Below, piece by piece: positions 22,288-64,000 of a stretch of DNA of 64,000 nt. A model generated the notes under the pieces. It made no database searches. It was not told the DNA's origin and saw only the letters and a list, made by a program, of their open reading frames with translations. Numbering within the stretch: position 1 is the first letter of the stretch; every line of letters begins with the position of its first letter. The translations under genes and the position numbers were made by a program. The DNA lies in the IMG/VR virus record IMGVR_UViG_3300003320_000853. One strand, given 5' to 3'. Source of the stretch: a virus (lineage: Duplodnaviria > Caudoviricetes).

Positions 22288-23220
22288 ATGGTCACGGCCG
22301 ATCTGAACCCTCCGCTTGGCAAGCCCGGCGGCCCTTGTCAGGTCGTTGACCGGATCGTCAAGCGCGTCCGCGACGAGCGCCTCCAGAAGGGTCTCGTCAA
22401 CGAGGTTCAGAAGGGGGAGGATCTTTCCAACGCCGAGGCTTCGAAGGTCTACCCGATCGAAGCGGAGCCCGGCGTTGGGCCGATCCACAAGATCGTCATC
22501 ACGTCGCATGGTCAGTACCGGATGGATCTACGGGAGATCACCGTTGACGATGTCCGGGGAGCGCTGGCGTCCTTCGTGAAGCAGCTCGAAAACTGGCGGG
22601 CCCTCAAGAGCCCGGCCTACGACACGTTCATGGGCCGGCTTGAAGGCAAAGAGCACGTCGAGTGGGTCGACCCCCGCTCGAAGCTCAAGGTCGTTTTCGC
22701 ACAGGAGTCCCCAGGCACGGTTCGCCTCATCACGACCTTCTGGCGGGGACAGCAGTCAGCTCCACCACCGAAGGGTACGTGCAAGATTCCCGGAAAGGCC
22801 GCCATGGATCCCCTCGTTCTTCGCGTTGCAGCCCGTTTCCAACGTCAGGCCGCAGTCCCCAAGGGTGCGAAGAAAGTCTTCCTGGATGCGGTGAGGGAGC
22901 AGGTATCTCTGGCCAGGGTCGTATGGGGTCAGCTCCGGGATTCTTCGAAAGCCGCGCTGGTCGCTGTCCGGGTGCTCGCCGAGAGCAACGCCCGGGAAGA
23001 GGCCAACATCACGGAACATGTCCTGCATCCCATCATCCGGAACGACATGGAGGATGCGAGAGACATCCCTGAGCACGCCCACCAGGTGGCGAGCCAGCTC
23101 CACTGGGACATCGTGGAGAGCGCTGCGTTCGCCGTGGCGCTCTTGGAGGCCGCCGGGCAGGCGGCCTTGGCCAAGAAACTCTTCAACGCCCTCCTGGCGG
23201 AGGTCGGTCAGTACCTCTAG
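22288..23220 (+). CDS. Two-domain protein: DUF4258/RelE-like RNase-fold domain, internal RVAARF tag, helical domain
   Basis: IVITSHGQYRMDLREIT...LKVVF...VRLITTFW resembles DUF4258; DPLVLRVAARFQRQAA at 22807-22854. Confidence 0.55.
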   Translation: MVTADLNPPLGKPGGPCQVVDRIVKRVRDERLQKGLVNEVQKGEDLSNAEASKVYPIEAEPGVGPIHKIVITSHGQYRMDLREITVDDVRGALASFVKQLENWRALKSPAYDTFMGRLEGKEHVEWVDPRSKLKVVFAQESPGTVRLITTFWRGQQSAPPPKGTCKIPGKAAMDPLVLRVAARFQRQAAVPKGAKKVFLDAVREQVSLARVVWGQLRDSSKAALVAVRVLAESNAREEANITEHVLHPIIRNDMEDARDIPEHAHQVASQLHWDIVESAAFAVALLEAAGQAALAKKLFNALLAEVGQYL

Positions 23221-23579
23221 TTCTCCGTCCCGAGGCACCAGCCGCCGCCCTTGACGGGCTTGATCCAGCGCTCCTTGACGGCCTTGAGGCCGATGGCCTT
23301 CGCCCGCTCCTCGGTCAGGCCCTGGCGGACGAGCCCGGTCGTCAGGGTGCGGGAGAGGGTGCGACCCCACCCGGCGTGAAGAGCGTCGCACACGCGCTTG
23401 TAGTCGGACGGCACCGGGGGCGGAGGGGTGCGGTCGTTGGCCGCCGTGGGGTCGGTGACCGTGAAGCGGCGGACGAGAACGCGCTGGCAGAGCTTCTTGT
23501 GGGGCCCCCGGCGGCCATTGTGTCCGCAGGAGCACACGGTGGTGGAGGTCTTGGGGTTCTGAGCGATTGCGGTGTTCAT
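23217..23579 (-). CDS. Hypothetical protein (N-terminal CxCxH)
   Basis: 120 aa; convergent with 22288, divergent from the SNF2 gene; GATGTA motif variant 8 nt upstream. Confidence 0.6.
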   Translation of the reverse strand: MNTAIAQNPKTSTTVCSCGHNGRRGPHKKLCQRVLVRRFTVTDPTAANDRTPPPPVPSDYKRVCDALHAGWGRTLSRTLTTGLVRQGLTEERAKAIGLKAVKERWIKPVKGGGWCLGTEN

Positions 23580-23620
23580 GGCTCTTCTACATCCCGGATC
23601 CGATTCCGATCAATGCCTTT

Positions 23621-23645
23621 CTACACCATATCGCTTGTGGTGTAG
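23621..23645. promoter_or_regulatory. Back-to-back GGTGTA motifs (divergent class M sites)
   Basis: CTACACCA-N9-TGGTGTAG is a perfect 8-bp inverted repeat between divergent genes; the plus copy lies 10 nt before ATG 23655. Confidence 0.6.
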
Positions 23646-23654
23646 GGGGCCCCG

Positions 23655-25415: not shown

Positions 25416-25424
25416 GCCCGGCGG

Positions 25425-25703: not shown

Positions 25704-26371
25704 GCGTCCCCGAGGACAAGGCGAAGGCCTTCCTGGAAGACCCCCAGCGTCTCGTCGGCACCCGGTGGGCCTGGTTCCGACGCCCTTCTAGCTACCACAA
25801 TCACGAGACTGTTGTCGAAGTCGTACACGTTCAGGGGGACAACGCACTCCTCGTGAGCCTCTTCTCGGAGGTCTTCGAGACGAAGAACGTACCTGTCGTA
25901 CTTCTACTCTCCGAGTTCTCGACTTTCGATTTCACAGGCACGGCGGAGGAGTTTCGGTGGATCATGTCGGGGGTGCTCATTGTAGACATCAAGGATAGCC
26001 GTGTACCGAAAAGGGTTTACAGGATCCAATCCATTCAGAGGGGTGGCGTCCATTTCCAGGCCATCTGGGTTTTGGACCCGGAGACTCAAGAGAGACTCAC
26101 GGACAACACGAGCGGTGGGATCACGTACCATGTGTTCGCTCGCACGTGGCGGCAGGCTACGGATGCCGAGCTGCGAGACTATGAGCAATATGCTGTCGAA
26201 GAGAATCGACAGCATAGAGTACGCCTCTCGGAGCAAGCAGACGGAGCCAGGAATATGATCCGCTCTCTTGCAGAAGAAGCCTCTGGGAAGGCCGAAGAAC
26301 CTTCCGAACCGAGGTCCCCCGGGCCCACCTCATGGGAAGTGCTCGACCGAGAGAACGACCTCGATGAGTGA
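25700..26371 (+). CDS. Hypothetical protein ending in the T-S-W-E-V-L-D acidic motif
   Basis: 223 aa; ATGA overlap; lower GC; C-terminus GPTSWEVLDRENDLDE. Confidence 0.7.
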   Translation: MSVPEDKAKAFLEDPQRLVGTRWAWFRRPSSYHNHETVVEVVHVQGDNALLVSLFSEVFETKNVPVVLLLSEFSTFDFTGTAEEFRWIMSGVLIVDIKDSRVPKRVYRIQSIQRGGVHFQAIWVLDPETQERLTDNTSGGITYHVFARTWRQATDAELRDYEQYAVEENRQHRVRLSEQADGARNMIRSLAEEASGKAEEPSEPRSPGPTSWEVLDRENDLDE

Positions 26372-29702: not shown

Positions 29703-30012
29703 GAGATGCGGGAGACAGTGTTTCTCCACAGCTCAAAGGTATTTCGAGCACTTGCCCGTCCCTTGTGTATATCGGGGAGACTATGTGGTGATGTGTCTCC
29801 CCTGCGCTCTTTCTCTCGGCGCCCCGCTCGTCGAGGTAGTCGTGACTTCCGGAGCCGACGGGTGCAAGGCGTTCGCCCCGTGGGGGGCGGGCAAGACGGT
29901 AGGGACCCCGGAGGAAGCTGTGAACAGTCTCCTCCAGCATCTTCCGATGCGCTCGTTGAAGTCCCCTAAGACGGCCTGGGAGCACTTGCTCGACGAATGC
30001 CTCGACGATTGA
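29686..30012 (+). CDS. Zn-finger protein ending in PKTAWEHLLDECLDD
   Basis: 108 aa; CERC...CLPC; AGGAG upstream. Confidence 0.65.
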   Translation: MLLQCERCGRQCFSTAQRYFEHLPVPCVYRGDYVVMCLPCALSLGAPLVEVVVTSGADGCKAFAPWGAGKTVGTPEEAVNSLLQHLPMRSLKSPKTAWEHLLDECLDD

Positions 30013-30443
30013 GACTTCGGACGAACGAGATGGGGTTCCAGGAGCTCTTCCTCATCTACGAGACGGCCGGCGTGTGGGAGCCTGCCTGGGCTCCGCTGCG
30101 GGGGCATCCGTTGACTTCTCTCTTCGCCATCGTGTCGAAAGAGGACATGGACCATGCGCTCCACGGCTGGACGCGCCCGCTCGTCGACCGGCTTGGTCCG
30201 GCTCCGAAGTTCCTCCTCCGGAAGCTGCCATCGCACGCGTGCGCCCTTCGAGCTCGGTGTTCGCTCTTTCAAGCGCGCTTCTGTGTCCCAACGCACCCGA
30301 AGATGCCGCTGTGCTTCCAGCCCGACGACACGGATGACCAGACGGGGATGCTCGCGTCGGAAGCGATCAGACTTTGGCGCGAAGGGGTGTATGTGATCGT
30401 CGTCGTAGATGCCGCGAACGACGGTCGTCAACCGAAAGCGTAG
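30009..30443 (+). CDS. Hypothetical Cys-containing protein
   Basis: TTG start overlapping the upstream TGA (or ATG 30030); C..C...C...C cluster. Confidence 0.6.
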   Translation: MRLRTNEMGFQELFLIYETAGVWEPAWAPLRGHPLTSLFAIVSKEDMDHALHGWTRPLVDRLGPAPKFLLRKLPSHACALRARCSLFQARFCVPTHPKMPLCFQPDDTDDQTGMLASEAIRLWREGVYVIVVVDAANDGRQPKA

Positions 30444-33400
30444 TCCCTTCGACGTCTACATAGGGCGCCCCTCGAAGTGGGGGAACCCGTTCTCGCACCA
30501 GGCGGGCACCCTGGCGTCCTTCCGGGTGTCTTCTCGGGAAGAGGCTATCGCCAGGTACGAAGCCTGGATCCTGGGACAGCCCGAGCTTCTTCGGCAGATC
30601 GCGACAGAACTTCGAGGAAAGCGGCTCGGTTGCTGGTGCAAACCCCTGGCTTGTCACGGGGATGTTCTGGCCCGGCTTGCGGATGGAGGCGTGATGTCAG
30701 ACATTGGCGACGAAGACTTCGACTTCCTGAACCTTCCAGAGAATTCGGCCGAGAAGAAGCTCGTGACCCCGCCGGAGCCCGAGGGTGTTTTCGGTGAGGG
30801 CGACGGGCTGGACGATTTCATGGCGTCCACAGGGATGCAGCGGGAGCGAGATGTTCCCGATCCCGCGAAACCGTGGATGAAGTTCCACGAGTTCAAGCTC
30901 GTCCAGAGCTTGGCGGAGGTCGAGGCTCTCGTCGACGCAGCCATCGCCGCCAAGAAGTGCTCGCTCGATCTGGAGACCGAGGGGCTCGACAACCGCATCT
31001 TCTACACGCCCGATCGCAAGCCGTACACCGTTCACCAGATCGTCGGCTACTGCATCTCCATCGACGGCAAGGCGGGCTACTACATCCCCGTCCGACACAA
31101 GCCCGGAGAGGGTCAGCCCGACCTCAATGTCAAGCCGATCGAGGCCGTCGAGTCTGCCATCCGGCGGCTGTGTCTCGCGGCGCAACCGAAGCCGAAGGAA
31201 GCCAACCCGAAGGATCCTCTCGCCTTCCGGGAGTTCGAGACTGGGCCTCAGCTCGTCATCGAGTTCTGGAACGCGAAGTTCGACCAAGAGATGCTCTTTC
31301 CAGTCACCGGCCTCGATTGGTGGCACCCGGAGAGCTTCGAGGATGGCTGCCTGGGCGCCTTCACCGTCAACACGGCGGATGCCGAGGAAGGCGAGCTTGG
31401 GCTGAAGGACAAGGCGAAGAGCCATCTCTCCGTCGAGGAGACCATCAACGGGAAGGTCGTTCGGCATCCCTACGAGATGATCGAGCTCAAGGAGCTGTTC
31501 CTCAAGGGACGCGAGATCCATTTCGATCTCCTGTCCCCCGATGAGCCGGGCGTCATCAAGTACGCGTGTTCCGACGCCATCTGCACGACGCTCCTCTGCC
31601 AGCGCGACGATCTCGTGAAGCTCGCGAAGGCGAAGTATGGTTTCACCTACCGTCTGGAGAAGCAGGTCACGGAGGTCGTTCGACACATGGAGCGCAACCG
31701 TGTGAAGATCAACCGCCAGAAGGCGCAGGTGCTTCACGAGTACCACACGAAGAAACGGGCCGACCTCGCGGCGCAGATCGGTGCGCTCGCGGAGAGCCGT
31801 GGTTTCTATGGCCTCGACATCGAGAGCCCGAAGCAACTCGGGGAATTTCTATTCGGGGAGAACGGGCTCGATCTCAAGCCCAAGCCGGACAAGAACGAGA
31901 AGAGCGGCCAGTACAAGACCGACGGTGACACGCTGGAGGGGATGGCCAAGGATCTCGGAGAGGAGGCTCCCCCGATCCTCAAGTGGATCGTCTCGTACCG
32001 CGAGGAGGCGAAGCTCCTTGGCACCTACCTCGACAAGCTCTGCAACAACTTCGACTCCCACGTCAAGACGCTCTCCGAGATGCGCTTCAACTTCAAGCAA
32101 ACGGGGGCCGAGACGGGGAGGTTCTCAGCCCCGGCGCAGAAGGACAAGGTGTCCCACGGGTTCGCTGGGCTCCCGATCCACGGGGTGCCCAACTCGACGG
32201 CTTTCCGAGCTCTCTTCGAGGCTCGGGAGGGGTACGCGATGGTCAAGTGCGACTATGCGGGGCAGGAGCTTCGTGTCGTCGCCAACGTCTCCGGAGAACC
32301 TGTCTGGATCAAGGAGTTCCTGGAGGGCACCGGCGATCTTCACAGCATCACGGCCCGGGCCTTCTTCAACAAGCCCGAGGTGACCAAGGAGGAGCGCGGC
32401 AAGGGCAAGATCGCCAACTTCGCCCTCATCTACGGCGGCGGCGCCGCCGCGATCATGCGAGCTACGGGATGCGACAAGGTCGAGGGCCAGCGGCGCAAGC
32501 AAGCGTTCGACAAGGCGGTGCCGGTCTTCGCCAACTGGCTCAAGAGTCAGCACGCTCGGGTCAAGAAGGAGAAGGGTGTCTGGACGCCCTTCGGCCGATG
32601 GATCTCGATTCCGGATGCCACCGTGAAGGAAGGGGATGTCCTCAACGGGCACACCCTCACGTGGCAGGAGGCCAAGAAGATCCAGGCTGCATGCGAACGA
32701 AACGCCGTCAACGCCCCCATCCAGGGTGCCGGCGCGGACATCATGAAGATCAGCATGGTCCTGCTCCACAAGGAGTTTCACCGGCGCGGCTGGCTTCGGG
32801 ATGGCGGGGACGACTCGGTGCGGATGCTCCTCACCGTTCACGACGAGCTCGTCTTCGAGATCCGCTACGATCGTGTCGCCGAAGCTCTCCCGATCATCGT
32901 CGAGCAGATGGAGATGCCGTGGAAGATGGCCCGGCCTCCCTATTCGCCTCCGTGGCAGGTTCCGCTCATTGTCGAGCCCCTCATCGGGTTCAACTGGGGC
33001 GCCGGGTACAAGGTCGAGCGCTACAGCGAAAAGCACCCGATCAAGGACACACAGGTGGTCATGCACGGGTACGTCTACTCCCTCACGCGTGTCTGCGAGA
33101 AGGAGAACGAGATCCAGGAGAACGAGACCATCGTCAAGGCGAACGAGAAGGACGGAAAGAAGACGTGGACGGTGCGTCTGACGGATCCGCCTCCGTGGGT
33201 GCGCGACATCAAGGACGTCCCTCCGCCTCCCACGCCGCCCTCCACGGGCGCGGAGCCGCCTCCACCCGCCTCTCCCAGGCCGGCGCCCGCCCCGGTCTCC
33301 ACGACGCCGAAGAATGGGAAGATCGCCACCATTCGGCTCAAGGAGCTGACCCCGACGTCGATCCGACAGGTGCGAGGGGTGTGTGCTCAGCACATCGACA

Positions 33401-33549
33401 TCGACAAGGGCACCATCCTGCGTCTCATCGACCCCTACGGGGAGCTGCTCATTGATCCCAAGCTCGGGGTGATGGTCGATCCTGAGATGGTCGCGGCGAC
33501 GCTGCGAGAGCTGCATCTGTCGGACGGCCTCTACGTCCTCAACGCATAA
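30409..33549 (+). CDS. polA: Family-A DNA polymerase (3'-5' exonuclease + polymerase) with in-frame N-terminal DUF4326-like domain
   Basis: ExoI LDLETEG, ExoII NAKFD, ExoIII YACSDA; motif A DYAGQELR, B KIANFALIYG, C TVHDEL; first ~92 aa DVYIGRPSKWGNPF...LGCWCKPLACHGDVL. Confidence 0.93.
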   Translation: MPRTTVVNRKRSPFDVYIGRPSKWGNPFSHQAGTLASFRVSSREEAIARYEAWILGQPELLRQIATELRGKRLGCWCKPLACHGDVLARLADGGVMSDIGDEDFDFLNLPENSAEKKLVTPPEPEGVFGEGDGLDDFMASTGMQRERDVPDPAKPWMKFHEFKLVQSLAEVEALVDAAIAAKKCSLDLETEGLDNRIFYTPDRKPYTVHQIVGYCISIDGKAGYYIPVRHKPGEGQPDLNVKPIEAVESAIRRLCLAAQPKPKEANPKDPLAFREFETGPQLVIEFWNAKFDQEMLFPVTGLDWWHPESFEDGCLGAFTVNTADAEEGELGLKDKAKSHLSVEETINGKVVRHPYEMIELKELFLKGREIHFDLLSPDEPGVIKYACSDAICTTLLCQRDDLVKLAKAKYGFTYRLEKQVTEVVRHMERNRVKINRQKAQVLHEYHTKKRADLAAQIGALAESRGFYGLDIESPKQLGEFLFGENGLDLKPKPDKNEKSGQYKTDGDTLEGMAKDLGEEAPPILKWIVSYREEAKLLGTYLDKLCNNFDSHVKTLSEMRFNFKQTGAETGRFSAPAQKDKVSHGFAGLPIHGVPNSTAFRALFEAREGYAMVKCDYAGQELRVVANVSGEPVWIKEFLEGTGDLHSITARAFFNKPEVTKEERGKGKIANFALIYGGGAAAIMRATGCDKVEGQRRKQAFDKAVPVFANWLKSQHARVKKEKGVWTPFGRWISIPDATVKEGDVLNGHTLTWQEAKKIQAACERNAVNAPIQGAGADIMKISMVLLHKEFHRRGWLRDGGDDSVRMLLTVHDELVFEIRYDRVAEALPIIVEQMEMPWKMARPPYSPPWQVPLIVEPLIGFNWGAGYKVERYSEKHPIKDTQVVMHGYVYSLTRVCEKENEIQENETIVKANEKDGKKTWTVRLTDPPPWVRDIKDVPPPPTPPSTGAEPPPPASPRPAPAPVSTTPKNGKIATIRLKELTPTSIRQVRGVCAQHIDIDKGTILRLIDPYGELLIDPKLGVMVDPEMVAATLRELHLSDGLYVLNA

Positions 33550-43380: not shown

Positions 43381-43886
43381 ACGTAGGCATCATCGCGGCC
43401 ATGACCCCGGACGGCATCATCGGGGTCGACGGCACCCTCCCCTGGCACTACAAGGCCGACCTCCAGCGATTCAAGCGCCAGACGATGGGTAGCTCCATCG
43501 TCTTCGGGGCGCGCACCTACGAGACCCTTCCTGGCCGACTCACGGGCCGGGTCGTCGTCGCGGTGAGTCGAGAGAGGCACCGGACGTGGGATCACAATAA
43601 TTGGCCCGACGGGGTCTATGGGAGTCTCGGCGCTGCGATCCACTTCGGAAAAGTGAGGACGGGCACTGTGTGGATCGGCGGTGGAGGGGAAATCTACCGC
43701 CTCGCGCTCGAACAGGGACTCGTGGAATTCATCGATCTCACGATCGTCCCCCCCGTTGAGGTTTCTCCGACCTTCAAGGTCACGAGGTTCCCTGTGGATC
43801 TTCTTGTTGGGTGGTCTCTGATCGAAGAGGCCCCGAACCCTGATGATCCTCGACTCCTCCAACGACGATACGAGCGTCTCGCATAG
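43377..43886 (+). CDS. folA: Dihydrofolate reductase
   Basis: IIAAMTPDGIIGVDGTLPWHYKADLQRFK..T, FGARTYETL, WIGGGGEIY. Confidence 0.9.
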   Translation: MNVGIIAAMTPDGIIGVDGTLPWHYKADLQRFKRQTMGSSIVFGARTYETLPGRLTGRVVVAVSRERHRTWDHNNWPDGVYGSLGAAIHFGKVRTGTVWIGGGGEIYRLALEQGLVEFIDLTIVPPVEVSPTFKVTRFPVDLLVGWSLIEEAPNPDDPRLLQRRYERLA

Positions 43887-45105
43887 GGTCTTCCGTCGCT
43901 TTCTTGCGGACATGATCGCGGACGTGCCCGTCCAGCTCGACAAATTCCGAAAGGAAATCGTCGAGCCCGCTCTCGCCAGAGAGAAACACGTCGAGGATGT
44001 GATGGTTCTGCTCCGAGCTTTCCTCAAGGCGCGTGAGGAAAGCAACGATGCCGAGAGCCAGCGTCTCTCCCAGGATCTCCGGCAAGAAGATCGGTTCATC
44101 ACCGAGGTGAAGCTTCATTTCAGCTCGGACTACTGGTATCGCAAGGGCAAGGTGATCGCCGCCCCGCTCTTCTGGGCGATCATTCAGCAATACGCGATGC
44201 CCCCGCGGGTGCGGACGGTTATCGAGGGCGCCTCTCGATTCTGGTCGAAGACCCGGATCATGGTGCGTCTCAAGGCCAAGCCTTACAGTGATGCCGGCCA
44301 CCTGGAGTATTGTGAGGCATACCTCAAGCTCTGCGGTGAACTGCGGAAGCAACTTGACGCGGGCCAGATGTCCGTCGACAAGGGACAGCTCCATTCATCT
44401 CCGGATGCGACGACGAAGCTCAAGGCTGGGAGTTTCACCCTCATCAACACGGGCGGCTTCGATGACGACTTGATGAAGGGCGTCGTCGAGACCGTGGAGA
44501 AGGCTGAGCACGCGATGCGAGGCATCGGTCTCGGCAAGGTATGCTACGGGGACATCATGGTCACGAAGACCATCAAGTCGAAGACCACCGTGGCGGCCTT
44601 CTATGTCCTCGTCAACGATGAGATGTTCGTTCGAGCGAACGTCAAGCCCCACTGGGACACGGTACAGGTGGTCTGCCATGAGCTCGCGCATCGCTACCAG
44701 AACAAATTCCTCAAGGGTAAGCAGCGCGAGATCGACGATATTTACCGGCAGATCAGCAGAGCGAGCCGGATCACCGAAGACTTCCCCATCGAGATGTATC
44801 CGATGGCTGGTGACACGATCGTCGATCCGAAGTATGGTGAGCTCCAGGTCGTCAAACCTGACTATTCCAAGCAGAGCGTCAAGCTGATCTCGGATCAGAT
44901 GCCGGGTGTCTCCCTGTCGCTCCCTCTGGCCGCTTGGCTCAAGGCCAAGCACATTCAATGGCCCCCTCACGACGACACCAAGCTTCAATGGGTGACGGGC
45001 TATGCCAAGAAGGATCCCGACGAGAACTTCGCAGAGATGGTGTCCTTTCATGCGCTCGGAAAGCTCCCGCCTCCGCTGATCTCTTTGCTCGAACCCCTGC
45101 TATGA
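43843..45105 (+). CDS. Zincin metallopeptidase-domain protein with N-terminal RVFRRF tag
   Basis: HELAH at 44677-44691 and distal YAKKDPDENFAE (lethal-factor/MPTase-like arrangement); start could alternatively be ATG 43912. Confidence 0.75.
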   Translation: MILDSSNDDTSVSHRVFRRFLADMIADVPVQLDKFRKEIVEPALAREKHVEDVMVLLRAFLKAREESNDAESQRLSQDLRQEDRFITEVKLHFSSDYWYRKGKVIAAPLFWAIIQQYAMPPRVRTVIEGASRFWSKTRIMVRLKAKPYSDAGHLEYCEAYLKLCGELRKQLDAGQMSVDKGQLHSSPDATTKLKAGSFTLINTGGFDDDLMKGVVETVEKAEHAMRGIGLGKVCYGDIMVTKTIKSKTTVAAFYVLVNDEMFVRANVKPHWDTVQVVCHELAHRYQNKFLKGKQREIDDIYRQISRASRITEDFPIEMYPMAGDTIVDPKYGELQVVKPDYSKQSVKLISDQMPGVSLSLPLAAWLKAKHIQWPPHDDTKLQWVTGYAKKDPDENFAEMVSFHALGKLPPPLISLLEPLL

Positions 45106-46317: not shown

Positions 46318-46956
46318 ATGCTCCCGGCGCTACCTGTGATCGATCTGCTCTCTGTTCAACCCGATGCGGACGGTTTGGACATCTGGGCCGAAGATTTCGA
46401 TCGGAATTCTGTTCCGGCAGGGATCGGCGTCTACTGCTTCTACGACCCTACCACAGGAATGCCCCACTACATCGGGTCAGGTTGCGCGATCCACGCGAAT
46501 GGGGTGGGGGTATGGCGTCGGATCCTCGACTATCGGAAAGGCCCCAAGCAGTTCGTAGCCGCGCACAACAGGCGGATCGGCGAGGCTGTTCGCACCCTGG
46601 GTCTCCGACTCAAGGTGTGGTTGGTGGCCAGCAACGGGGACGCCAGGAAGTACGAGATGGATGCCATCGCCAAGTACCGGCCGTCCCTCAATAAGGTTGG
46701 CGCAGATGACCCGACACAAACGCTCGAAGCGGAGCGAGCCCAGGCACAAGCCTGTCACGACCGATCTCGGGCCAAATGGCTTGGAGTCTACGATCCCAAC
46801 GCTGTGAAACCTTGTAGCCGGTGCAAGACACCCAAGAAGTGTTCGGAATACCGTCGTTGTGATGGTTTCCCATTCGGCGTTCACAGGGCCTGCAAAACTT
46901 GTGAGAAGCTATCGAGGGCACAGATCAAGCAGCACAGCGTGGAGGGCGCGGAATGA
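46318..46956 (+). CDS. GIY-YIG endonuclease with C-terminal Zn finger
   Basis: GVYCFY...HYIGSG...RR; E..AI...P.LN; CSRC...CKTC. Confidence 0.75.
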   Translation: MLPALPVIDLLSVQPDADGLDIWAEDFDRNSVPAGIGVYCFYDPTTGMPHYIGSGCAIHANGVGVWRRILDYRKGPKQFVAAHNRRIGEAVRTLGLRLKVWLVASNGDARKYEMDAIAKYRPSLNKVGADDPTQTLEAERAQAQACHDRSRAKWLGVYDPNAVKPCSRCKTPKKCSEYRRCDGFPFGVHRACKTCEKLSRAQIKQHSVEGAE

Positions 46957-47990
46957 ATCTCGTCGCTCGTGTCGTGGCTCGCTTCCTCCAGGCCGAGGAC
47001 GGTGAGGAGAAGAAACCCGGTAAGGGAGGCGTCCCCGCACGTTGGCAGGAGTTCCTCGACAAGGTTCATCACGGGGGCAAGGAAAGGGTCAAGAATCCCA
47101 ACCCGAAGACCCAGAGCCGCCACAAGGAAGTCGCTTACAGTACCGCCCTCAAATACCCGAAGTTCTTCTTGGAGGCGATGAAGGAGTACAACGAGTGGGC
47201 CAAGAAGAACCCCAAGGACAAGGGTGAGGGCGGCGCCAAGGGGAAGGCTCCCGAGGAGAAGCCGAAGTCTAGGACGCCGCTTCCGGAGGCCATCAAGGAT
47301 GCGGTCACGCGCGTCTTCGGGGACAACCCTCCGAGCGTGGAAGACTTCGAGGAGATGTTCTCGGTCGGGAAGGACCACAAGACCAAGATCACGAAGATCC
47401 GTCACGTCAAGGGAGCGGTGACCAACGATTTCGACTTCGAGGGGGATCCCGCCGAGCATGTCGTTCGGGGATCGGTCGAGGTCAACTACGAGATCCATGA
47501 CAAGGACGGGAAGGTCATCGGCCACGGAGCCCAGAACTTCAATACTGTCGACGGGGAGAAAGTCGTTTTCAACCAAGAGGTGAAGCTCGACGAGAAGTCC
47601 CAGGGACAAGGTCTCGGGAAGACCATGTTGAAGAACAACTTCACGGCGTTCAAGAAGATGGGCGTCAAGAAGTCCATGCTGAACGCCGACTGGAAGGGGC
47701 GCTACGTTTGGCCGCGCATGGGGTATGACTCGGACCCCGATACCGTGAATGCGATGAAGGACGACCTCCGGAAGCATCTTCGCACCGAGGTTGGGATCTC
47801 GAAGGCGGCAGCGGACAAGATCCTCGATGCCTGCAAGACGCTCCACGACATTTCTTCGGTTCGCGTCGACGGAGAACACGCGGGGAAGGATTTCCTCTTG
47901 AGCAAGAGGGCGAGAGTGTTCAGCGCCAGCATCTCGTTGGACGATGACGACCCGGGCTTCAAAATTTTGAAGGAATACGTGGGACTATGA
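46953..47990 (+). CDS. GNAT-like acetyltransferase-domain protein with N-terminal RVVARF tag
   Basis: MNLVARVVARFLQAE; KLDEKSQGQGLGKTML (acetyl-CoA motif A) and GRYVWPRMGY. Confidence 0.7.
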   Translation: MNLVARVVARFLQAEDGEEKKPGKGGVPARWQEFLDKVHHGGKERVKNPNPKTQSRHKEVAYSTALKYPKFFLEAMKEYNEWAKKNPKDKGEGGAKGKAPEEKPKSRTPLPEAIKDAVTRVFGDNPPSVEDFEEMFSVGKDHKTKITKIRHVKGAVTNDFDFEGDPAEHVVRGSVEVNYEIHDKDGKVIGHGAQNFNTVDGEKVVFNQEVKLDEKSQGQGLGKTMLKNNFTAFKKMGVKKSMLNADWKGRYVWPRMGYDSDPDTVNAMKDDLRKHLRTEVGISKAAADKILDACKTLHDISSVRVDGEHAGKDFLLSKRARVFSASISLDDDDPGFKILKEYVGL

Positions 47991-48181
47991 AGGCGGATGG
48001 TGATCTCACGTCTGACTTGGAAGGCGAAGTCGACAAGGGCGACTTCCTTGAATTCGACAAGGAGGGGAACCCCAAGAAGGCCAGCCTCGCAGCCCGCGTA
48101 CTCGCTCGTTTCCAACAAGCTTCAACAGGAGATGCCCATGACCATCGCCGCCACGTGCTTCCTCCTCGCTCCGACCGATAA
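47987..48181 (+). CDS. Small protein carrying the RVLARF tag
   Basis: ATGA overlap; ...KKASLAARVLARFQQAS; overlaps the next gene by 44 nt. Confidence 0.45.
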   Translation: MKADGDLTSDLEGEVDKGDFLEFDKEGNPKKASLAARVLARFQQASTGDAHDHRRHVLPPRSDR

Positions 48182-48695
48182 GGCTCGGCTCAAGCTTCGC
48201 CGGTACAAGAGCGGCTCCGGGACGTGTGAGGGCGCCGATGCCTATCACAATGCGTCGACCCCATTTGCCGTCGTCCCGGCGAACCTCGACAAGCAAGGGT
48301 ACCTCCAGCCTTGCGACCAGCTCGCGCCCTCTCACGACGACCCCCGCTGGCCTACGAAGTGCGAGGGGTGCGCCTACGAATTCCAGGAGGAGGACAAGTG
48401 GCAGCTCTTCCAGGAGATGCTCTACGTGCGCCCGGACACGGGCGAAGTCTTCACCCTTCGGGAGGCGCCGGTCGGGGCCATGTGGGACGCCTTCTGGCTC
48501 CCCTGGAAGGGGTCGGACGGACGCTCCCTCGTGGTGATGACCCCCGCTGGCGAATGGTCGATCGACGGCCCCTCCGAAAGCGGGGGCTACTGGACGCGGA
48601 CGGGCGAGCCCCCCAGGATCTCGGTGCAGCCGTCGATCCACTTTCCGGGGAAGTACCACGGGTGGCTCACGAACGGCGTGCTCACGCCGTGTTGA
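48138..48695 (+). CDS. Protein with C-terminal DUF6527-like domain
   Basis: AGGAG RBS; WSIDG...WTRTGEPPRISVQPSI....YHGWLTNGVL. Confidence 0.65.
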   Translation: MTIAATCFLLAPTDKARLKLRRYKSGSGTCEGADAYHNASTPFAVVPANLDKQGYLQPCDQLAPSHDDPRWPTKCEGCAYEFQEEDKWQLFQEMLYVRPDTGEVFTLREAPVGAMWDAFWLPWKGSDGRSLVVMTPAGEWSIDGPSESGGYWTRTGEPPRISVQPSIHFPGKYHGWLTNGVLTPC

Positions 48696-49129: not shown

Positions 49130-50392
49130 ATGGCCGAGAAGCCCATCCCGAGGTGCGGGTTCTGTAAGAAACCGCGCAACGAAGTCAAGAACCTGGCAGG
49201 GGCCGGAGACGATGGCCCCCTCATCTGCGACAAGTGCGCTCGGCAGTTCACCCAGACGTTCGTCGAAGCCGAGCTGAAGAGGACCGAAGAGAAGCGCTTC
49301 GTTCTCCGCAAGCCGCGGGAGATCCGGGCCTTCCTCGACGACTACGTGATCGGGCAGGAGCGCGCCAAGCTCGATGTGAGCGTGGCGATCTACGAGCACT
49401 ACAAGCGCCGGAAGGCCGCCAAGGCCGGGGATGACCTCGGGGTCGAGATCCAGAAGAGCAACATGCTCGTCCTCGGACCAAGCGGCACGGGCAAGACGGA
49501 AATCTTCCGCACCGTGGCCCGCATGCTCGGGGTGCCTTTCTTCGTCGCCGACGCGACGAAGCTCACCCAGGCAGGGTACGTCGGGGACGACGTCGAGTCC
49601 ATCCTCCAGGGGCTCATCGCCGACGCAAACGGGGACATCGAGCGGGCGCAGTGGGGGATCATCCTCATCGACGAGATCGACAAGCTCGCCCGGAAGAGCG
49701 GGCGGGGCGCGACCGGCTACCGTGACGTGACCGGGGAGGGTGTTCAGCAGGCGCTGCTCAAGCTCCTCGAAGGCTCGCGCGTGAATGTCCCCCGGGGGAT
49801 GGGCAAGTCCATCATCGCCAACATGGAGTTCGACACGATCGACACGTCGAACATCCTCTTCATCGGAGCGGGCAGCTTCGCCGGGATCGAAGAGGCCATC
49901 AGCCGGCGCCTGAACAAAGATTCGGGCCTCGGGTTCGGCGCCGCCGACCGGAAGAAGGTCTCGAAGACGGACGCTTATCTCGCGGTCGAGGAAGACGACA
50001 TCCTCGACTTCGGGATGATCCCCGAGCTGATGGGCCGCATGCCGGTCATCACGACCACGATCGACCTCACCGAGGACGAGCTGATCGAGATCCTGACCAA
50101 GCCGAAGAACGCGATCATCAAGCAGTTCGTCGCGTCCTTCCGGATGGACAATATCGACCTCCAGTTCGACGAAGCTGCCCTCCGGGCCATCGCTCGCGAC
50201 GCGAAGAAGCGTCCCACCGGAGCCAGGGCGCTCCGGGCCATCGTCAAGCGGACCATCCGCCAGTTCAGCTACGACGCCCCGAGCGACCCGACCATCGGCT
50301 CGATCCGGGTCACAGAGGAGACCGTCACGAACGGCGCCGCGCCGGTCATTCTCCGCCGGGAGGCACCGGAGAAGCAGGAGGCGACCGGATGA
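49130..50392 (+). CDS. clpX: ATP-dependent Clp protease ATPase subunit ClpX
   Basis: CGFC/CDKC Zn domain, YVIGQERAK, KSN..LGPSGTGKT, AGYVGDD, DEIDK, RDVTGEGVQQALLK, LGF loop, TGARALR. Confidence 0.95.
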   Translation: MAEKPIPRCGFCKKPRNEVKNLAGAGDDGPLICDKCARQFTQTFVEAELKRTEEKRFVLRKPREIRAFLDDYVIGQERAKLDVSVAIYEHYKRRKAAKAGDDLGVEIQKSNMLVLGPSGTGKTEIFRTVARMLGVPFFVADATKLTQAGYVGDDVESILQGLIADANGDIERAQWGIILIDEIDKLARKSGRGATGYRDVTGEGVQQALLKLLEGSRVNVPRGMGKSIIANMEFDTIDTSNILFIGAGSFAGIEEAISRRLNKDSGLGFGAADRKKVSKTDAYLAVEEDDILDFGMIPELMGRMPVITTTIDLTEDELIEILTKPKNAIIKQFVASFRMDNIDLQFDEAALRAIARDAKKRPTGARALRAIVKRTIRQFSYDAPSDPTIGSIRVTEETVTNGAAPVILRREAPEKQEATG

Positions 50393-51431: not shown

Positions 51432-52010
51432 GTGAGTCCCAGCTCCTACAGGGTTGCCGCCCGTTTCATCGCCGAGCAGACCAAATCGGCCCCCAAGAAG
51501 GTCGACGACCTCTTCAAGGAAGTCAAGGACGGCAACCCGTCGTACTCCGACGAACAGGCGTGGGCCACAGCCTGGTCGATCTACTGCAAGCACGTCGACC
51601 CGGGCGGGTCCCACTGCAAGAAGTCTCCGGGGGAGTACCTCAAGGAGGCGTCCGCTCCTGTGGGATCCTGGGGCTCATACATCGAGAAGTGGTGCGAGGA
51701 TGTGCTCACGGCTCTTCAACGGAAGCTGACGCCGATCATGCGGGGGTGGAAGCCTACGGACATTCGTCGGAGCGGCTCAAGGCAGATCCTCGACTTCATC
51801 CGAGGGGATCGAGGGGATGGGACCCGGGAAGATGCCGGCGTCTCCCTTCAATGGGACGGATCCGGCATCGAGATCCGTGTGGATCTGGTCTCTCCGAAAT
51901 ATCACAACGTTGTGGTTCTATTGCAACAACGCGTTGCGTTCGATGAGACAGCCTTTGACGTATTGAAAAACGTCGAGCAAACATTCAAGTCGGAGATTTT
52001 TGCTCGATGA
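51432..52010 (+). CDS. RVAARF-tagged protein with a ChaB-like segment
   Basis: GTG start inferred; SYRVAARFIAEQTKSA then NPSYSDEQAWATAWSIYCK. Confidence 0.6.
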   Translation: MSPSSYRVAARFIAEQTKSAPKKVDDLFKEVKDGNPSYSDEQAWATAWSIYCKHVDPGGSHCKKSPGEYLKEASAPVGSWGSYIEKWCEDVLTALQRKLTPIMRGWKPTDIRRSGSRQILDFIRGDRGDGTREDAGVSLQWDGSGIEIRVDLVSPKYHNVVVLLQQRVAFDETAFDVLKNVEQTFKSEIFAR

Positions 52011-52294
52011 GCACCCTCGAACAGCGGGTCGTTTCGCGCTTCATTGAAGCCGTCTCCAAGGACGATGCCGAGGAGATGGCTGAGTTCAAGAGGATGATCC
52101 ACGAGATGACCGAGGAGATGCTCGGCTTCGCGGAGGAGATGGATCGCTTCAAAGGCAAGATGGGTCGCTGGCGGGACAAGCTGCCGAAGAACGCCTTGTG
52201 GGAGGACGTACCGAACGACCTCGACGGCGCCATCAGCAGCATGGACAAGTCGGTGAGCAAGCTCCGTGGGTACGCTCACAAGTTGGGGACGTGA
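52007..52294 (+). CDS. Small helical protein with N-terminal RVVSRF tag
   Basis: MSTLEQRVVSRFIEA; ATGA overlap. Confidence 0.7.
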   Translation: MSTLEQRVVSRFIEAVSKDDAEEMAEFKRMIHEMTEEMLGFAEEMDRFKGKMGRWRDKLPKNALWEDVPNDLDGAISSMDKSVSKLRGYAHKLGT

Positions 52295-52299: not shown

Positions 52300-53502
52300 A
52301 TGGACATCGCCAAGCGTGTTCTCGCCAGAGTCAAGGCCACCACCGACGCTACCGAGCGAACGCTCGAAGCTGCGGAGTTCATGAACGGTGATGGGGTTCA
52401 GCGGATCTCCATCGTCGAGAAGACCCATCCACGCGCAGGGGGAGATGTCTCCCACACGTACGTCCTTCGCACGTATGCCGACCATTTCGGGCTCAACGTG
52501 GCGTCGGAGACTTCGATCGGTAGCTGGCCGGCGGCAGCGTGGCTTGCGGATGCTCTGAGCCGGACGGCAGGCGCGATGCGGTCGGTCCGCCCGCTACCCG
52601 ATCCCGACTACTGGCCCGACATCTTCATCAAGAATGGGGAACAGCATCTCCGCCGGTGGGAGAAGGGTCAAGAGACGTCCTCCCAGTCGATCACGGCCCG
52701 CGTTCTCGCTCGTTACCGCCGATCGATGGAGCACCCGACCGAGAAGGACCGCAAGCAGTACCTTCACGATCACCCGCACGCCGATCCGGCGAACCACACG
52801 GTGGCGAAGCCTGGAGACCACGGTGGGGGGCACGGCGAGCATCACGAAAACAAGCCGAAGAAGTCCCTGAAAGAGCGTCTTCAGAGCATGGGCGAGAAGG
52901 CCAAGAGCTTCGTCAAGAACGCACCGGGCGACCTCAAGAAGTTCTTTGAGGACGAGGGTCATAGGCGCAAGGTGCTCCAGGGGGCTCACGAGAAGCTGGT
53001 GAAGGCCCCCGAGAAGCTCATCGCGAACGCCGTGCACACGGTGAAGCACGAGGTCAAGGAATTCAAGGAGGCCGGGGAGGGAGTCGCTGCCGTCATGAAG
53101 GGCGGCAAGATGAACGACCACCAGAAAAAGGCCCTCAAGACCGTGGGCTTCCATCTGGCTCTCACGGCAGTCGCCACAGTGCTGACGACCACGGGTGGTC
53201 CCCTGGCGGGTGCGGCCGTCTTCGGCAAGTCCATGGCGAAGCACGTCGCCATGAAGTCGGTGTCCAACGCGCTCGGACACCTCCACGTCCTCGAAGAAAT
53301 GGGGCATATCGGCCATGGGATCCATGGCGTGATGGAGCATCTCATGGACAAGCTCGCCACCGACGAGAAGGCGAACCCCGAGGATGTGATGGCTCAGTTC
53401 TTCGTCGCAGCGGCGGCGAAAGAGCTGGCGAACGTGGATGACGACACGATCGCCGACGCGATCGAGGGGATGGACAAGGCTGACGAGGCGCCGTCGGAGT
53501 AG
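52300..53502 (+). CDS. Two-part protein with two tags (RVLARV, RVLARY); second part His/Lys-rich with a hydrophobic segment
   Basis: MDIAKRVLARVKA; SITARVLARYRRS at 52687-52725; YLHDHPHADP; LALTAVATVLTTTGGPLAGAAVF. Confidence 0.7.
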   Translation: MDIAKRVLARVKATTDATERTLEAAEFMNGDGVQRISIVEKTHPRAGGDVSHTYVLRTYADHFGLNVASETSIGSWPAAAWLADALSRTAGAMRSVRPLPDPDYWPDIFIKNGEQHLRRWEKGQETSSQSITARVLARYRRSMEHPTEKDRKQYLHDHPHADPANHTVAKPGDHGGGHGEHHENKPKKSLKERLQSMGEKAKSFVKNAPGDLKKFFEDEGHRRKVLQGAHEKLVKAPEKLIANAVHTVKHEVKEFKEAGEGVAAVMKGGKMNDHQKKALKTVGFHLALTAVATVLTTTGGPLAGAAVFGKSMAKHVAMKSVSNALGHLHVLEEMGHIGHGIHGVMEHLMDKLATDEKANPEDVMAQFFVAAAAKELANVDDDTIADAIEGMDKADEAPSE

Positions 53503-57467: not shown

Positions 57468-57967
57468 AGCTCGGTGACCTGGTTCAATACAAGGGCACAC
57501 ATTGGATCGTCCGCCGCCACGACCCGAAGCGGACGCGCATGGCAACCCTTGTCGCGGCTTCGGGTCAGTCGGAGGAGGTCGCCCACGACTCTGACGCGAA
57601 GGGTCAGGTGGTCGTCATCGCGAACCCGTCCACTGAGTGGCCTTTCATCGTGCTCAAGGAGCGCCCGAAGTTCGGCAAGCTCGTCGAGATCATCCGCTTC
57701 CGGGGGATGACCGTCACGGCGCATCTCCAGCTCAACGTCGACTGGGTGCCGAGCGATCCGCTCCGGAGCGGGGGTGCCGTGTTTTTCTCGCCTACGCTCG
57801 GACTTCTCGTGGGCGAGACGCTCTCCGCGCTCCATGAGCACGGGCGGGCGTCTTTCACTGTTCCCGCGAACTTCACTACGGTGCGGGCACGGGTCGAGAA
57901 GGCAACTCCGAAGCCGAGGGAGCCGAAGTCGGCCTACGACCATCTCCTCGACGAGGACGAGCTGTGA
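57464..57967 (+). CDS. Hypothetical protein ending in PKSAYDHLLDEDEL
   Basis: 167 aa; MKLGDLVQY SH3/KOW-like start; AGGAG RBS. Confidence 0.7.
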   Translation: MKLGDLVQYKGTHWIVRRHDPKRTRMATLVAASGQSEEVAHDSDAKGQVVVIANPSTEWPFIVLKERPKFGKLVEIIRFRGMTVTAHLQLNVDWVPSDPLRSGGAVFFSPTLGLLVGETLSALHEHGRASFTVPANFTTVRARVEKATPKPREPKSAYDHLLDEDEL

Positions 57968-60215: not shown

Positions 60216-60216
60216 A

Positions 60217-60663: not shown

Positions 60664-60672
60664 CCGGGGCGC

Positions 60673-61653: not shown

Positions 61654-62114
61654 GGAGCCATGAGAGGGGTCAGAGGAAGCAACTCCGAGCTCTGGCCCAA
61701 CAGGTGAGCCGGAAGCTCGCCGACATCAACCAGCGGGTCAACATGCAAGCCTTCGGCTTCTCCCTCGCCCTGGTCTCGTCCCTTCTCGTGTCGGGCGTCT
61801 CGCGCTTCTCCACGCAGGGCGGTCGGCTCGACCGAGCTATCAAGCTCGCCGTCGAGCGAGGCGCCTTCACCCCGTGGAAGAACTCCCTCGCCTTCGTCGA
61901 CACCATGGTGGGTCTCCGCTGCGTCCAGTTGCAGGAGACCCTCTTGATCGCTCAGATGGCGGGGATCCTCTGGTTCGTGGGGCCGTCCTTCAACGAGGCC
62001 GAGATCGTCATCTCGGTCGAGACCGCAAGGACGATGCTCCGGAGCAACAAGCTCGACGAAGAGACGGCCCGGAGTTGGGGGGCCGCCTTGGTCGCGGCCC
62101 TCGCCGAGGTCTAG
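61650..62114 (+). CDS. Hypothetical protein
   Basis: ATGA overlap; 154 aa. Confidence 0.55.
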   Translation: MRSHERGQRKQLRALAQQVSRKLADINQRVNMQAFGFSLALVSSLLVSGVSRFSTQGGRLDRAIKLAVERGAFTPWKNSLAFVDTMVGLRCVQLQETLLIAQMAGILWFVGPSFNEAEIVISVETARTMLRSNKLDEETARSWGAALVAALAEV

Positions 62115-62428
62115 CCGTTGTAGCTCTCGAAGCCGCGGGGGTCGGGCGGCGTCGTGTTCGGGATCTTGGTCCTGGCGAACTCGATCGCGCTGGATGCCGC
62201 ATTCGCGGCGGTTTCTCCCGCCGCGAAGACGCCGAGCAGGGCGTTGATGCGGGGGGCGTTCTTCTGAACGACCGCGATGGCCGCCATGACGTCGCCGATC
62301 TCCGCGCCGGTGAGGATCATCTGGAGGACGTGTCCGGCCCACTTGGCCTCGACGAGAGCCTTGCGGGTGTTGTTCAGCCCGTCGTGGGCGGCCATCAGCT
62401 TCTCGTGAGTCTCGTCTGCAATGAACAT
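62111..62428 (-). CDS. Hypothetical protein (105 aa)
   Basis: Minus strand; upstream GGTGTAAGGAGACCCCT-ATG (motif 11 nt upstream plus RBS). Confidence 0.7.
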   Translation of the reverse strand: MFIADETHEKLMAAHDGLNNTRKALVEAKWAGHVLQMILTGAEIGDVMAAIAVVQKNAPRINALLGVFAAGETAANAASSAIEFARTKIPNTTPPDPRGFESYNG

Positions 62429-62529
62429 AGGGGTCTCCTTACACCAAGGCGCCCGTCACGGGCACGTCTTTCCTACAACGCTCTGGCGGCGCCGATCAAC
62501 ATTCTGTCTTTAGCCCGGCCTCCCGTAGG

Positions 62530-62805
62530 ATGGACATCGCTCGCCGGGTCGTTCTTCGAGTTCTTGGGCATCAGGTCGGGACGTTTACTCTCCCGAAAGA
62601 TCATCTCTTCGGGATGCGAGTACCCGATGGGGGGTCGAGCTGCGCCAAGTGCCTCTTCGTGAGCGACGACGGGAAGCACTGTGGTAACCCCTACTTCCAG
62701 GACTGGCGAAAATCTCTGAAGGAGAAGGATCCGAGCCTGCTCCCCCACCCGGCCGACAGCTATTGCTGCGACGTCTTTCAGGCGCAGGGGTCCGATGACA
62801 CCTAA
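62530..62805 (+). CDS. Small Cys-rich protein with N-terminal RVVLRV tag variant
   Basis: MDIARRVVLRVLG; GMRVP.GGSSCAKC...YCCD; TTTAGC 15 nt upstream. Confidence 0.7.
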   Translation: MDIARRVVLRVLGHQVGTFTLPKDHLFGMRVPDGGSSCAKCLFVSDDGKHCGNPYFQDWRKSLKEKDPSLLPHPADSYCCDVFQAQGSDDT

Positions 62806-64000
62806 GACCGCCAGCACGGTGCGCGTCCTCGTCCTCGTCGAGGACACCCGGAAGGCTCGGGCTCGCTGGCCGGCTCTCGATGAGCTTGTGGTTGCCGAGT
62901 TTATGGGAACCATCCCGCTCTACCGCATCTTCGACGAGAACGAGCTGCAACACATCCTTCGCTCGGGGAAGATCACGGGTGGGAACTACTCCGTTCCCGC
63001 CGAGCGCTCTTTCGGTGCTTCCTGGGGGTCGAACGTCACACAGGTGATCGAGTGGGGGAACCGACTCCGAGGGAAGAGACTCGGCTCGAACCTATACCTG
63101 GCCAAGATCGACGGCTACGGACACCGATTCTTGCACCTGAGCCCTGAGATCAAGTTCGACATCGACAATCCGGAACCGCAGAAGTCTATCGTGGATTCAT
63201 CCCGATTCAACGTAGGGCTCGGTTGCTCCGTTGCGGATGTCGGCACGAACGAAGCGGAGTTCTACGTCATCACGGAAGACCACCGGATGCACAGCCTCGA
63301 CGATCAGGAGCTCCGGGCCCTGAAGAAGGGATCTTCTGCGCAGCGGGTGGCGGCTCGATTCCTTCAAGCTCGGGATCAATATTTCGAGCTTGGGGACATT
63401 GTAACCTACGGGAAATACAAGAACCACCGTGGGAAGATCGTCAACTTCGGAAAGGACAAGTGGGGCAACCCCACGGTCGAGGTCGAGCCCATCCCCAAGG
63501 GTCGGAAGCAAAACAAGGTCTTCGGCCTGTTCAAGATTTGGAGGGCGGACGTGAAGGAGAAGGCGCTCGCGGAGCAGGCAGCGAAGGAAGGTCTGACGGC
63601 TCGGGTCATCGCTCGCTTCGAGCAGGCCAAGGGGACGCCGCGGGGCTGGGAGCACCGGAAGGAGAAGGACGACTTCACGGAGCAGAACATCCCTCCCGAG
63701 TACCTGGTTCTCTGGCGGAAGCTCAAGAACCGCTTCAAGGGCACCCCTCATGAGCGTGCCGAGCAATTCATGGAGTACGTGGAGGAGCATCCTGGGGAGA
63801 ACACAGAGGCCCTCCAAGAGAACGCCGACAAGGAAGTCGCCAAGATGACCCGGGAGTGGGCACAGAAGCACCGGGAACAGGTGAAGCTGGAGAAGGAGTG
63901 CGACAAGACCCAGACCAAGTACGAGGACGCTTGGTACAAGGAACAGGAGCGGGCCACCAAGGAAAAGAACAACCTCAAGCAGTTGCAGGAGAAGGCAGAA
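62795..64000 (+). CDS. Multidomain protein running off the window (ART-like domain, tag, SH3-like domain, tag, helical region), partial
   Basis: Not in the ORF track (no stop in window); open for 402 codons; PLYRIFDENEL..I..SG.I...ASWG; QRVAARFLQA at 63341 and ARVIARFEQA at 63599. Confidence 0.75.
   Translation, partial: MTPKTASTVRVLVLVEDTRKARARWPALDELVVAEFMGTIPLYRIFDENELQHILRSGKITGGNYSVPAERSFGASWGSNVTQVIEWGNRLRGKRLGSNLYLAKIDGYGHRFLHLSPEIKFDIDNPEPQKSIVDSSRFNVGLGCSVADVGTNEAEFYVITEDHRMHSLDDQELRALKKGSSAQRVAARFLQARDQYFELGDIVTYGKYKNHRGKIVNFGKDKWGNPTVEVEPIPKGRKQNKVFGLFKIWRADVKEKALAEQAAKEGLTARVIARFEQAKGTPRGWEHRKEKDDFTEQNIPPEYLVLWRKLKNRFKGTPHERAEQFMEYVEEHPGENTEALQENADKEVAKMTREWAQKHREQVKLEKECDKTQTKYEDAWYKEQERATKEKNNLKQLQEKAE

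Follow-up and report, generated by a model that had tools for sequence, protein, structure and literature searches.

A portable peptide label on unrelated proteins across a clade of huge uncultured bacteriophages

We analyzed a stretch of 64,000 nucleotides (the window) from the IMG/VR virus record IMGVR_UViG_3300003320_000853 (Duplodnaviria; Caudoviricetes), in which an earlier note, made from the sequence alone, had pointed out a short basic motif, R-V-x-x-R-[FYV] (the RV tag), on otherwise unrelated proteins. The idea of a portable label, kept by selection on unrelated proteins, is upheld by our results: the tag is shared by a whole clade of uncultured bacteriophages of 300-530 kb, it stands at the N-terminus of 70 of the 120 homologues of a zincin-like protein of the window, and in the structure predicted for another tagged protein it is an isolated helix of low confidence within a flexible linker. 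Because the tag is independent of position, forms an isolated helix, is left behind as a scar of gene fusion and can be replaced by other labels, we conclude that it has the character of a docking or address peptide and not that of a structural element. Our best single guess for the destination of this docking tag, put forward tentatively, is the capsid.

The RV tag and the proteins that carry it

The window is part of a contig of 376,986 bases and is syntenic with IMG/VR contigs of 275-437 kb; a Megablast search of the region against GenBank phages gave no close match. Five relatives were taken whole (G001-G005, of which G005 is complete, with terminal repeats), and genes in the window and the relatives were called with a purpose-made codon model. 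The eleven copies of the motif that the earlier note had listed were all placed correctly, in position and in frame (22822, 43885, 46968, 48095, 51450, 52025, 52315, 52699, 62545, 63344 and 63602). Six of them begin 6-15 residues past a start codon (open reading frames, ORFs, at 43843, 46953, 51432, 52007, 52300 and 62530, as called with the codon model), four are internal (22822, 52699, 63344 and 63602), and one (48095) is found at residue 37 of a doubtful 64-residue ORF that overlaps the next gene.

Both the number of motifs and their placement at N-termini were far above those in shuffled proteins. The strict form RV..R[FY] occurs 9 times in the proteins of the window, against a mean of 0.375 in 1000 shuffles (shuffle maximum 4), and N-terminal strict matches number 4, against 0.024. 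Among the 1049 proteins of the window and four relatives there are 35 strict copies, compared to 4.2 expected (shuffle maximum 12), and 19 of the 35 are in the first 15 residues, where 0.28 are expected. A weight matrix built from the copies gave 56 matches at 16 bits or more, and none in shuffled proteomes. The matrix describes a fuller motif, [M]-[DSN]-[LI]-x-x-R-V-[AVL]-[A]-R-[FY]-[LQ]-x-[AK]-[AK], and in the 25 residues C-terminal to the tag Lys is enriched 2.3-fold and Cys, Trp, Asn and Ile are under-represented. The Ala that had been reported to follow the motif is a mild preference only, since A, K and Q are all favoured at positions +7 to +9. At the last position of the motif, F and Y switch freely among orthologues of near-identical phages, and a covariation of this residue with a reader was for this reason dropped from consideration.

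As previously noted, codons differ between copies: where two copies have the same residue, its codon is also the same in 34% of pairs, close to the figure predicted from codon usage. Conservation is thus at the level of the peptide, and a DNA repeat or DNA recombination site is excluded. The tag may be viewed as a basic, portable helix for docking, 12 residues long (about three turns) and with the pattern [DSN]-[LI]-x-x-R-V-[AVL]-x-R-[FY], which would present a hydrophobic face (L, V, F/Y) flanked by two arginines and would be tied to otherwise unrelated protein bodies by a flexible, Lys-rich linker. A basic amphipathic N-terminal helix, with a few copies reading RRF, could also bind membranes or serve as an export signal of the Tat type. 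We consider this highly improbable: its arginines lie four residues apart and no twin arginine is conserved, the tag is followed by charged linkers instead of a hydrophobic core or a signal-peptidase site, its conservation is stricter than membrane helices require, and there are C-terminal and internal copies. The sequence that follows the tag led us to reject a Tat or other signal peptide and a membrane helix.

The tagged ORFs of the window, all on the + strand, belong to separate BLAST families, in agreement with the earlier description of them as unrelated. The one at 22288..23220, which is the gene that closes the tail operon, encodes a DUF4258/RelE-like domain, the tag and a helical bundle, in this order. 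Its tag copy, LVLRVAARFQRQ (22813..22848, + strand, 30.3 bits), lies at the junction of the two domains, with a Met 7 residues upstream. In an AlphaFold (AF2) model of this protein, with a mean predicted local distance difference test score (pLDDT) of 88, the tag is an isolated short helix (residues 175-186, pLDDT ~62) in the loop between two confident domains. Homologues of the protein carry PF14076, a Foldseek search with the model returned only weak matches to RelE/HigB/ParE folds, and the module after the tag differs in the relative G001.

The zincin-like protein is encoded at 43843..45105; it has an HExxH motif and the tag at residue 15 (nucleotides 43876-43911), and its homologues carry PF15890. 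Further downstream, the product of 46953..47990 has its tag at residue 6 (46959-46994; 33.1 bits), followed by a Lys/Glu-rich linker of about 100 residues and a body that is weakly GNAT-like; in G002, its orthologue lies directly upstream of a gene for the unfoldase ClpX. The doubtful 64-residue ORF (47987..48181, tag at 48086-48121), which overlaps the start of the gene at 48138-48695, was not called by the codon-model caller, and a small, weakly tagged ORF is found at the same position in the locus L164. The ClpX gene of the window itself (49130..50392, + strand; Pfam zf-C4_ClpX, AAA_2 and ClpB_D2-small) lies amid this cluster of tagged genes, although it was absent from the earlier note. 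It is followed by three tagged genes. The first (51432..52010) encodes a protein of 192 residues from a GTG start, not the 302-residue ORF of the raw list, with the tag at residue 7 (51441-51476), and has homologues, tagged as well, directly downstream of ClpX in L166 and L169. The second (52007..52294) encodes a helical protein of 95 residues with the tag at residue 7 (52016-52051; 24.4 bits). The third (52300..53502) encodes a two-module protein with tags at residues 6 (52306-52341) and 134 (52690-52725). Only residues 126-392 of the latter are common to G001, and in G004 and L161 the same module is a separate protein encoded downstream of ClpX, with a diverged N-terminal RLVARY form that is below the matrix threshold. 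Near the end of the window, a Cys-rich protein of 91 residues (62530..62805) has the tag at residue 6, with Val in place of Phe (62536-62571; 23.8 bits), and a multi-module ORF that runs out of the window (62795..64000) has tags at residues 184 and 270 (63335-63370 and 63593-63628) around a small beta module; only this inter-tag module (residues 181-278) is common to G001.

The domain assignments of the earlier note thus fared unequally. The DUF4258-like and zincin assignments are supported by the families and folds given above, the GNAT likeness is weak (E = 0.0055, below the cut-off), and the ORFs described as ART-like and ChaB-like matched nothing in Pfam or PHROGs. Pfam and PHROG searches of most tagged protein bodies gave no match.

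Positions, fusions and interchangeable labels

The tag recurs throughout the clade. With the weight matrix we found 14 copies in G001, 11 in G002, 7 in G003 and 18 copies on 17 genes in G005, where about 3% of the genes are tagged. A tag profile found 4-17 copies in 18 of 19 large contigs, and 9-16 in the three complete genomes. The genome-wide tagged fraction is about 3-4%, and the tags are spread over four or five genome islands. The tagged proteins that can be named are the zincin, the DUF4258/RelE-like protein, topoisomerase IB, a possible J-domain protein (below the Pfam cut-off) and the weakly GNAT-like protein; most belong to no family. Topoisomerase IB is tagged in G002 and G005 (Pfam) and, by sequence likeness, in G004, so that the statement that core replication enzymes lack the tag holds in the window but not in the clade.

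Several of the zincin homologues have two tags in tandem. The DUF4258-like homologues are mostly stand-alone proteins of about 176 residues, with the tag either at the N-terminus or in the last 10-15 residues; in longer ones, the tag is found between this domain and a second module, which varies and in one case is topoisomerase IB. After C-terminal copies of the tag, only 3-7 residues remain. Internal copies have a Met 3-9 residues upstream in 13 of 22 cases, compared to 12% in controls, and the modules that flank them are stand-alone genes or are swapped in relatives. Most internal copies are therefore scars of gene fusion, i.e., fossil gene starts, and genes with the tag fuse and exchange modules at the tag. 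The same data lead us to replace the earlier suggestion that internal copies make polyproteins with one of gene fusion.

Module exchange and fusion exactly at the tag, together with the clustering of tagged genes in variable islands, could also be accounted for if the tag had no common reader and were an ancestral leader or a recombination junction that spread with cassettes and was kept as a harmless helix. This is improbable in our view. A sequence with unconserved codons cannot act as a DNA recombination site. Six positions of the tag are fixed in a clade whose DnaB helicases are only 55% identical, the tag persists on the majority of zincin homologues whose bodies are only 30-45% identical, and it has been placed convergently at either terminus.

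A second label was found on the same kinds of cargo. The zincin homologues without an RV tag begin with MYSYDRR or YDYDRR, and the motif Y[SD]YDRR (the YD tag) also ends some DUF4258 homologues. It is present at the N- or C-termini of 3-8 unrelated proteins in each of G001, G002, G003 and G005, among them a helicase that has it at both ends and, in G001 and G005, the products of the genes immediately 5' of ClpX. A third family, that of the protein G005_288267, has the YD tag in G005 and the RV tag in two other genomes, where its members are located beside ClpX; three cargo families (zincin, DUF4258 and G005_288267) thus carry either one label or the other. In stitched contig coordinates, YD sites are found in G001 at 72625-72957, 151789-155301 and 335387-336106, and in G005 at 259297, 275230, 275515, 287878, 288267 and 302151. 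We saw no Y[SD]YDRR in the window, and a contig with a YSYD-type zincin homologue had no other YSYD-tagged neighbours.

Three proteins of the window end in an acidic tail of the form P-[TS]-[AS]-[WY]-[ED]-x-[LV]..DD (the PTAWE tail; 26318-26365, 29962-30009 and 57920-57964). There are 18 copies of this tail in G005, and none was found in the complete genome G012, which has 9 RV tags, nor in LR745208 (a 485-kb relative), the phage Tunturi_5 or Bacillus phage G. The PTAWE tail and the RV tag never occur on one protein, with the exception of one weak case (51432-52010); about 0.2-0.4 co-occurrences per genome are expected. A direct pairing of the basic RV tag with the acidic tail was considered and set aside, as there is no sign of co-evolution (G012 has RV tags without PTAWE). 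In rough pattern scans, the YD tag and the PTAWE tail were each about as numerous as the RV tag. The placement of the RV tag at C-termini and junctions, its tandem duplication, the second tag and the fusion origin of internal copies are new with respect to the earlier note.

Candidate destinations: the head, ClpX and other hubs

We suggest that one conserved partner in this clade of huge phages reads the tag, and that the tagged proteins would most likely be destined for the interior of the head as it assembles. The partner of the helix would be a conserved component of head assembly (the scaffold, the interior of the shell, the portal, or the tagged post-portal protein described below), and enzymes and toxin-like effectors (the zincin protease, the RelE-like domain, topoisomerase IB and the possible J-domain protein) would be packed and delivered with the DNA.

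The evidence for this comes from the head genes and from the place of the DUF4258-like gene at the end of the tail operon. In G001, where the capsid protein, prohead protease, portal and large terminase were located, RV tags are found on a 988-residue protein encoded immediately downstream of the portal gene (the post-portal protein; tag near residue 65), on two small genes just upstream of the protease and on a gene beside the terminase. A conserved copy, YKxVGGSxxxRVxxR[FY], is found near residue 75 of the post-portal protein, which is of 940-1370 residues, in at least 13 of 30 loci of the clade. In LR745208, whose capsid protein is 82-83% identical, there are only three tags, of which two are in the head module and the third is at the N-terminus of a zincin family member. 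Between the portal and prohead protease genes of this relative (LR745208.1, 404201-405727) is a gene for an N-terminal domain with an FDFDGT motif (HAD-like by eye), followed by a tag at the junction and by topoisomerase IB. The capsid destination envisaged in the earlier note thus gains from the conserved post-portal copy and from tagged genes between portal and protease or beside the terminase, to the extent that packaging can be read from gene position.

Other elements of that proposal did not hold. The residues downstream of the tag, which had been seen as a possible x-x-A cleavage site, continue the helix and pass into the Lys-rich linker; positions +6 to +9 favour the helix formers L, Q, A, K and E with no conserved protease site, and the few residues left after C-terminal copies do not accommodate one. 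We do not consider cleavage beside the tag to be part of the proposed mechanism. No tag-like motif was found in the scaffold, protease or portal genes. The C-terminus of the capsid protein, LTRVVVQRF, was examined as a built-in tag and rejected: its arginines are one residue further apart, it scores 10.5 bits, and it is probably a chance likeness. The post-portal protein has no homology to the "DNA ejection protein" of Tunturi_5. Among IMG/VR contigs, at least 587 share the capsid protein at more than 90% identity; in the best 80 of these (loci L079-L158), the 293-residue protein of G001 (L016:469-1350) is matched at 90-100% identity. Judging from these sequences, and given the divergence of DnaB in the same phages, the shell is apparently under unusually strong constraint.

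A parallel is found in phage T4, whose internal proteins form a diverse anti-defence set with nothing but a capsid targeting sequence (CTS) in common (PMC3012670). Like the RV tag, the CTS of IPI-III and Alt is a short peptide shared by unrelated, fast-evolving proteins, many of them anti-host enzymes, from scattered genes, and it loads cargo into the prohead (PMC3012670), which for the clade studied here is a proposal. The T4 sequence, however, is strictly N-terminal and is cut off by the prohead protease at a defined site, whereas 16 of the 35 strict RV copies lie outside the first 15 residues, a conserved internal copy and functional-looking C-terminal copies exist, no conserved prohead-protease site follows the tag, and the two sequences are unrelated. 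Encapsulin shells share the HK97 fold with phage capsids. The cargo-loading peptides of encapsulins and microcompartments are, like the RV tag, short terminal peptides or amphipathic helices joined by a flexible linker to unrelated cargo, at either terminus. Unlike what we propose for the tag, they serve cellular nanocompartments, not a virion, and their sequences are unrelated to it. To our knowledge, no conserved address tag has been described for the head proteins of giant phages, and a full-text literature search for the motif strings returned nothing relevant. In the giant phage SPN3US, most head proteins are not processed at all (PMC10052503). As summarized in PMC7824862, which cites Iyer et al. 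2017, the polyvalent proteins of phages and conjugative elements are thought to be injected with DNA and, similarly to the tagged set, string together zincin, toxin-like and other effector domains. In contrast to the polyvalent proteins described there, the modules of our clade are mostly separate small genes, each with the same label, and multi-module forms arise by occasional fusion.

Several observations weigh against the head as destination. The tagged proteins are known from genes alone, in a clade without a cultured member. About half of the tagged genes of the window are found among nucleotide-metabolism genes and ClpX, in tight gene runs opened by GGTGTAG, an upstream element of non-structural genes, and not by the T-rich element of the tail genes (both described below). 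The tagged topoisomerase and possible J-domain protein, and the helicase with the sister tag, would be normal cytoplasmic enzymes, and the tag has no protease site after it. The nearest cultured relative, Tunturi_5, which infects an acidobacterium, has a related head module with a capsid protein 48% identical and is essentially without tags; since LR745208 has so few as well, the shell itself is not an obvious reader. Finally, the strongest signal of gene neighbourhood is with ClpX, not with head genes.

An alternative is that the tag docks proteins on some other hub or compartment, neither capsid nor ClpX, such as a replication or packaging factory, a DNA-bound organiser, or a hub protein of the host. 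The mixture of topoisomerase IB, helicase (by its sister tag), possible J-domain protein, proteases and orphans in the tagged set, and the scatter of tags over several genome islands, would be consistent with this, and a strongly basic tag with a Lys-rich flank suits an acidic partner or nucleic acid; moreover, no known reader can be assigned. We give this alternative a modest chance of being right, as no candidate hub was found, and it does not explain why a copy is conserved in the post-portal protein or why tagged genes cluster around ClpX.

The phage ClpX is 46-48% identical to bacterial ClpX. It has retained the C4 zinc domain, with its ligands conserved, as well as two loops, GYVG in the pore and [LIMV]GF for docking to ClpP. 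All 14 aligned phage orthologues have lost the RKH loop, and no phage ClpP was found in the four relatives searched (G001-G004). ClpX is encoded by every clade contig of at least 255 kb and by all three complete genomes, always between a CN-hydrolase and a DUF1848 gene. Most of the genes in the two variable slots that flank it are tagged, with at least six families represented among them. Of 17 genomes, 12 have an RV or YD tag on at least one of the four genes nearest ClpX, against the genome-wide tagged fraction of a few percent. In addition, the ClpX match of G012 (280070-282382) and G015 (215750-218074) is in two pieces about 350 residues apart, within one frame of about 780 residues; from the sequence, this looks like an intein-type insertion.

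These data raise the alternative that the tag docks proteins on the phage ClpX, through its zinc N-domain, in the manner of the SspB adaptor tail, or through a rewired pore, as clients or adaptors together with host ClpP, for timed removal, unfolding or remodelling. Five classes of ClpX degron and tethering by the N-domain have been described (PMC12723719). Several interchangeable terminal tags, tandem copies and a tethering peptide on a flexible linker, with a ClpX gene among the tagged genes, resemble this degron and adaptor logic (PMC12723719), and the two outgroups without ClpX, LR745208 and Tunturi_5, have 0-3 tags. Nonetheless, this explanation seems rather unlikely to us. LR745208 keeps three good tags, including the tagged zincin, in the absence of a phage ClpX, and Bacillus phage G has ClpX and no tags. 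For a tether of the SspB type, the evidence is mixed: the build and the gene neighbourhood fit, and these two phages do not. Across the clade the tag hardly varies, yet the zinc-binding domain is the folded part of ClpX that is least conserved (40% identity; large AAA domain, 61%). By inspection, the tag does not match the E. coli N-motifs 1-3 (classes from PMC12723719), its positions -2 and -1 not being consistently hydrophobic, and a conserved internal copy and C-terminal copies are unsuited to a terminal degron. N-motif 1 (polar-hydrophobic-hydrophobic-basic-hydrophobic) was tried as a candidate and fits few copies only. The ClpX-binding tail of SspB, LRVVK, may resemble the tag.

A broader possibility is that the phages use a private sorting code, in which the RV helix, Y[SD]YDRR and PTAWE are labels on the same cargo families and at least the RV and YD tags are read by the RKH-less ClpX, either as private degrons for degradation or by an unfoldase that hands cargo to the head. 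We regard this as unlikely. Docking of the tagged proteins inside the head is kept as our provisional choice.

Upstream elements, other genes and significance

The window has a G+C content of 62%, with nearly all genes on the + strand. Bases 1-23220 (+ strand) hold large tail-type genes; beyond 23220 are genes for an SNF2 helicase, DnaB, a family A polymerase, an AAA ATPase, a 5'-nucleotidase, thymidylate synthase, a CN-hydrolase, the ClpX homologue, DUF1848 and a DHH protein (Pfam). The family A DNA polymerase is encoded as an in-frame fusion with a DUF4326 domain (30409-33549; Pfam); here the codon-model caller preferred an internal start, at 30694.

The sequence GGTGTA(G) is found at a fixed distance, 15-16 nucleotides, upstream of the starts of SNF2, AAA ATPase, ClpX, DHH and other genes (27 matches, compared to 7.7 expected; examples in the window at 23639, 25409, 34874, 38265, 42193, 49115, 53515 and 60657). 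It is also present 13-23 nucleotides upstream of 53 gene starts in G001 and 45 in G005. Two functions seem possible for this element, as a promoter of near-leaderless transcripts or as an unusual signal for ribosome binding. Of 39 tagged genes, none is preceded by a GGTGTA element of its own, operon assignment being too crude to deduce the timing of expression. A T-rich element (TTCTTATC-like) is located 20-30 nucleotides upstream of four tail genes (window positions 1269, 3767, 11784 and 16924) and nowhere upstream of non-structural genes; it is a possible signal of late genes.

Should the tag have a single reader, it would define a whole group of proteins in phages that are widespread in soil and sediment (at least 587 contigs, by their capsid protein). 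Nearly all tagged proteins are without annotation, and the tag suggests that they have one shared destination. The tag would then point directly to effectors of uncultured phages that are injected or co-localised, offer a small natural peptide to load foreign proteins, and allow tests of how interchangeable address labels evolve on one and the same cargo.

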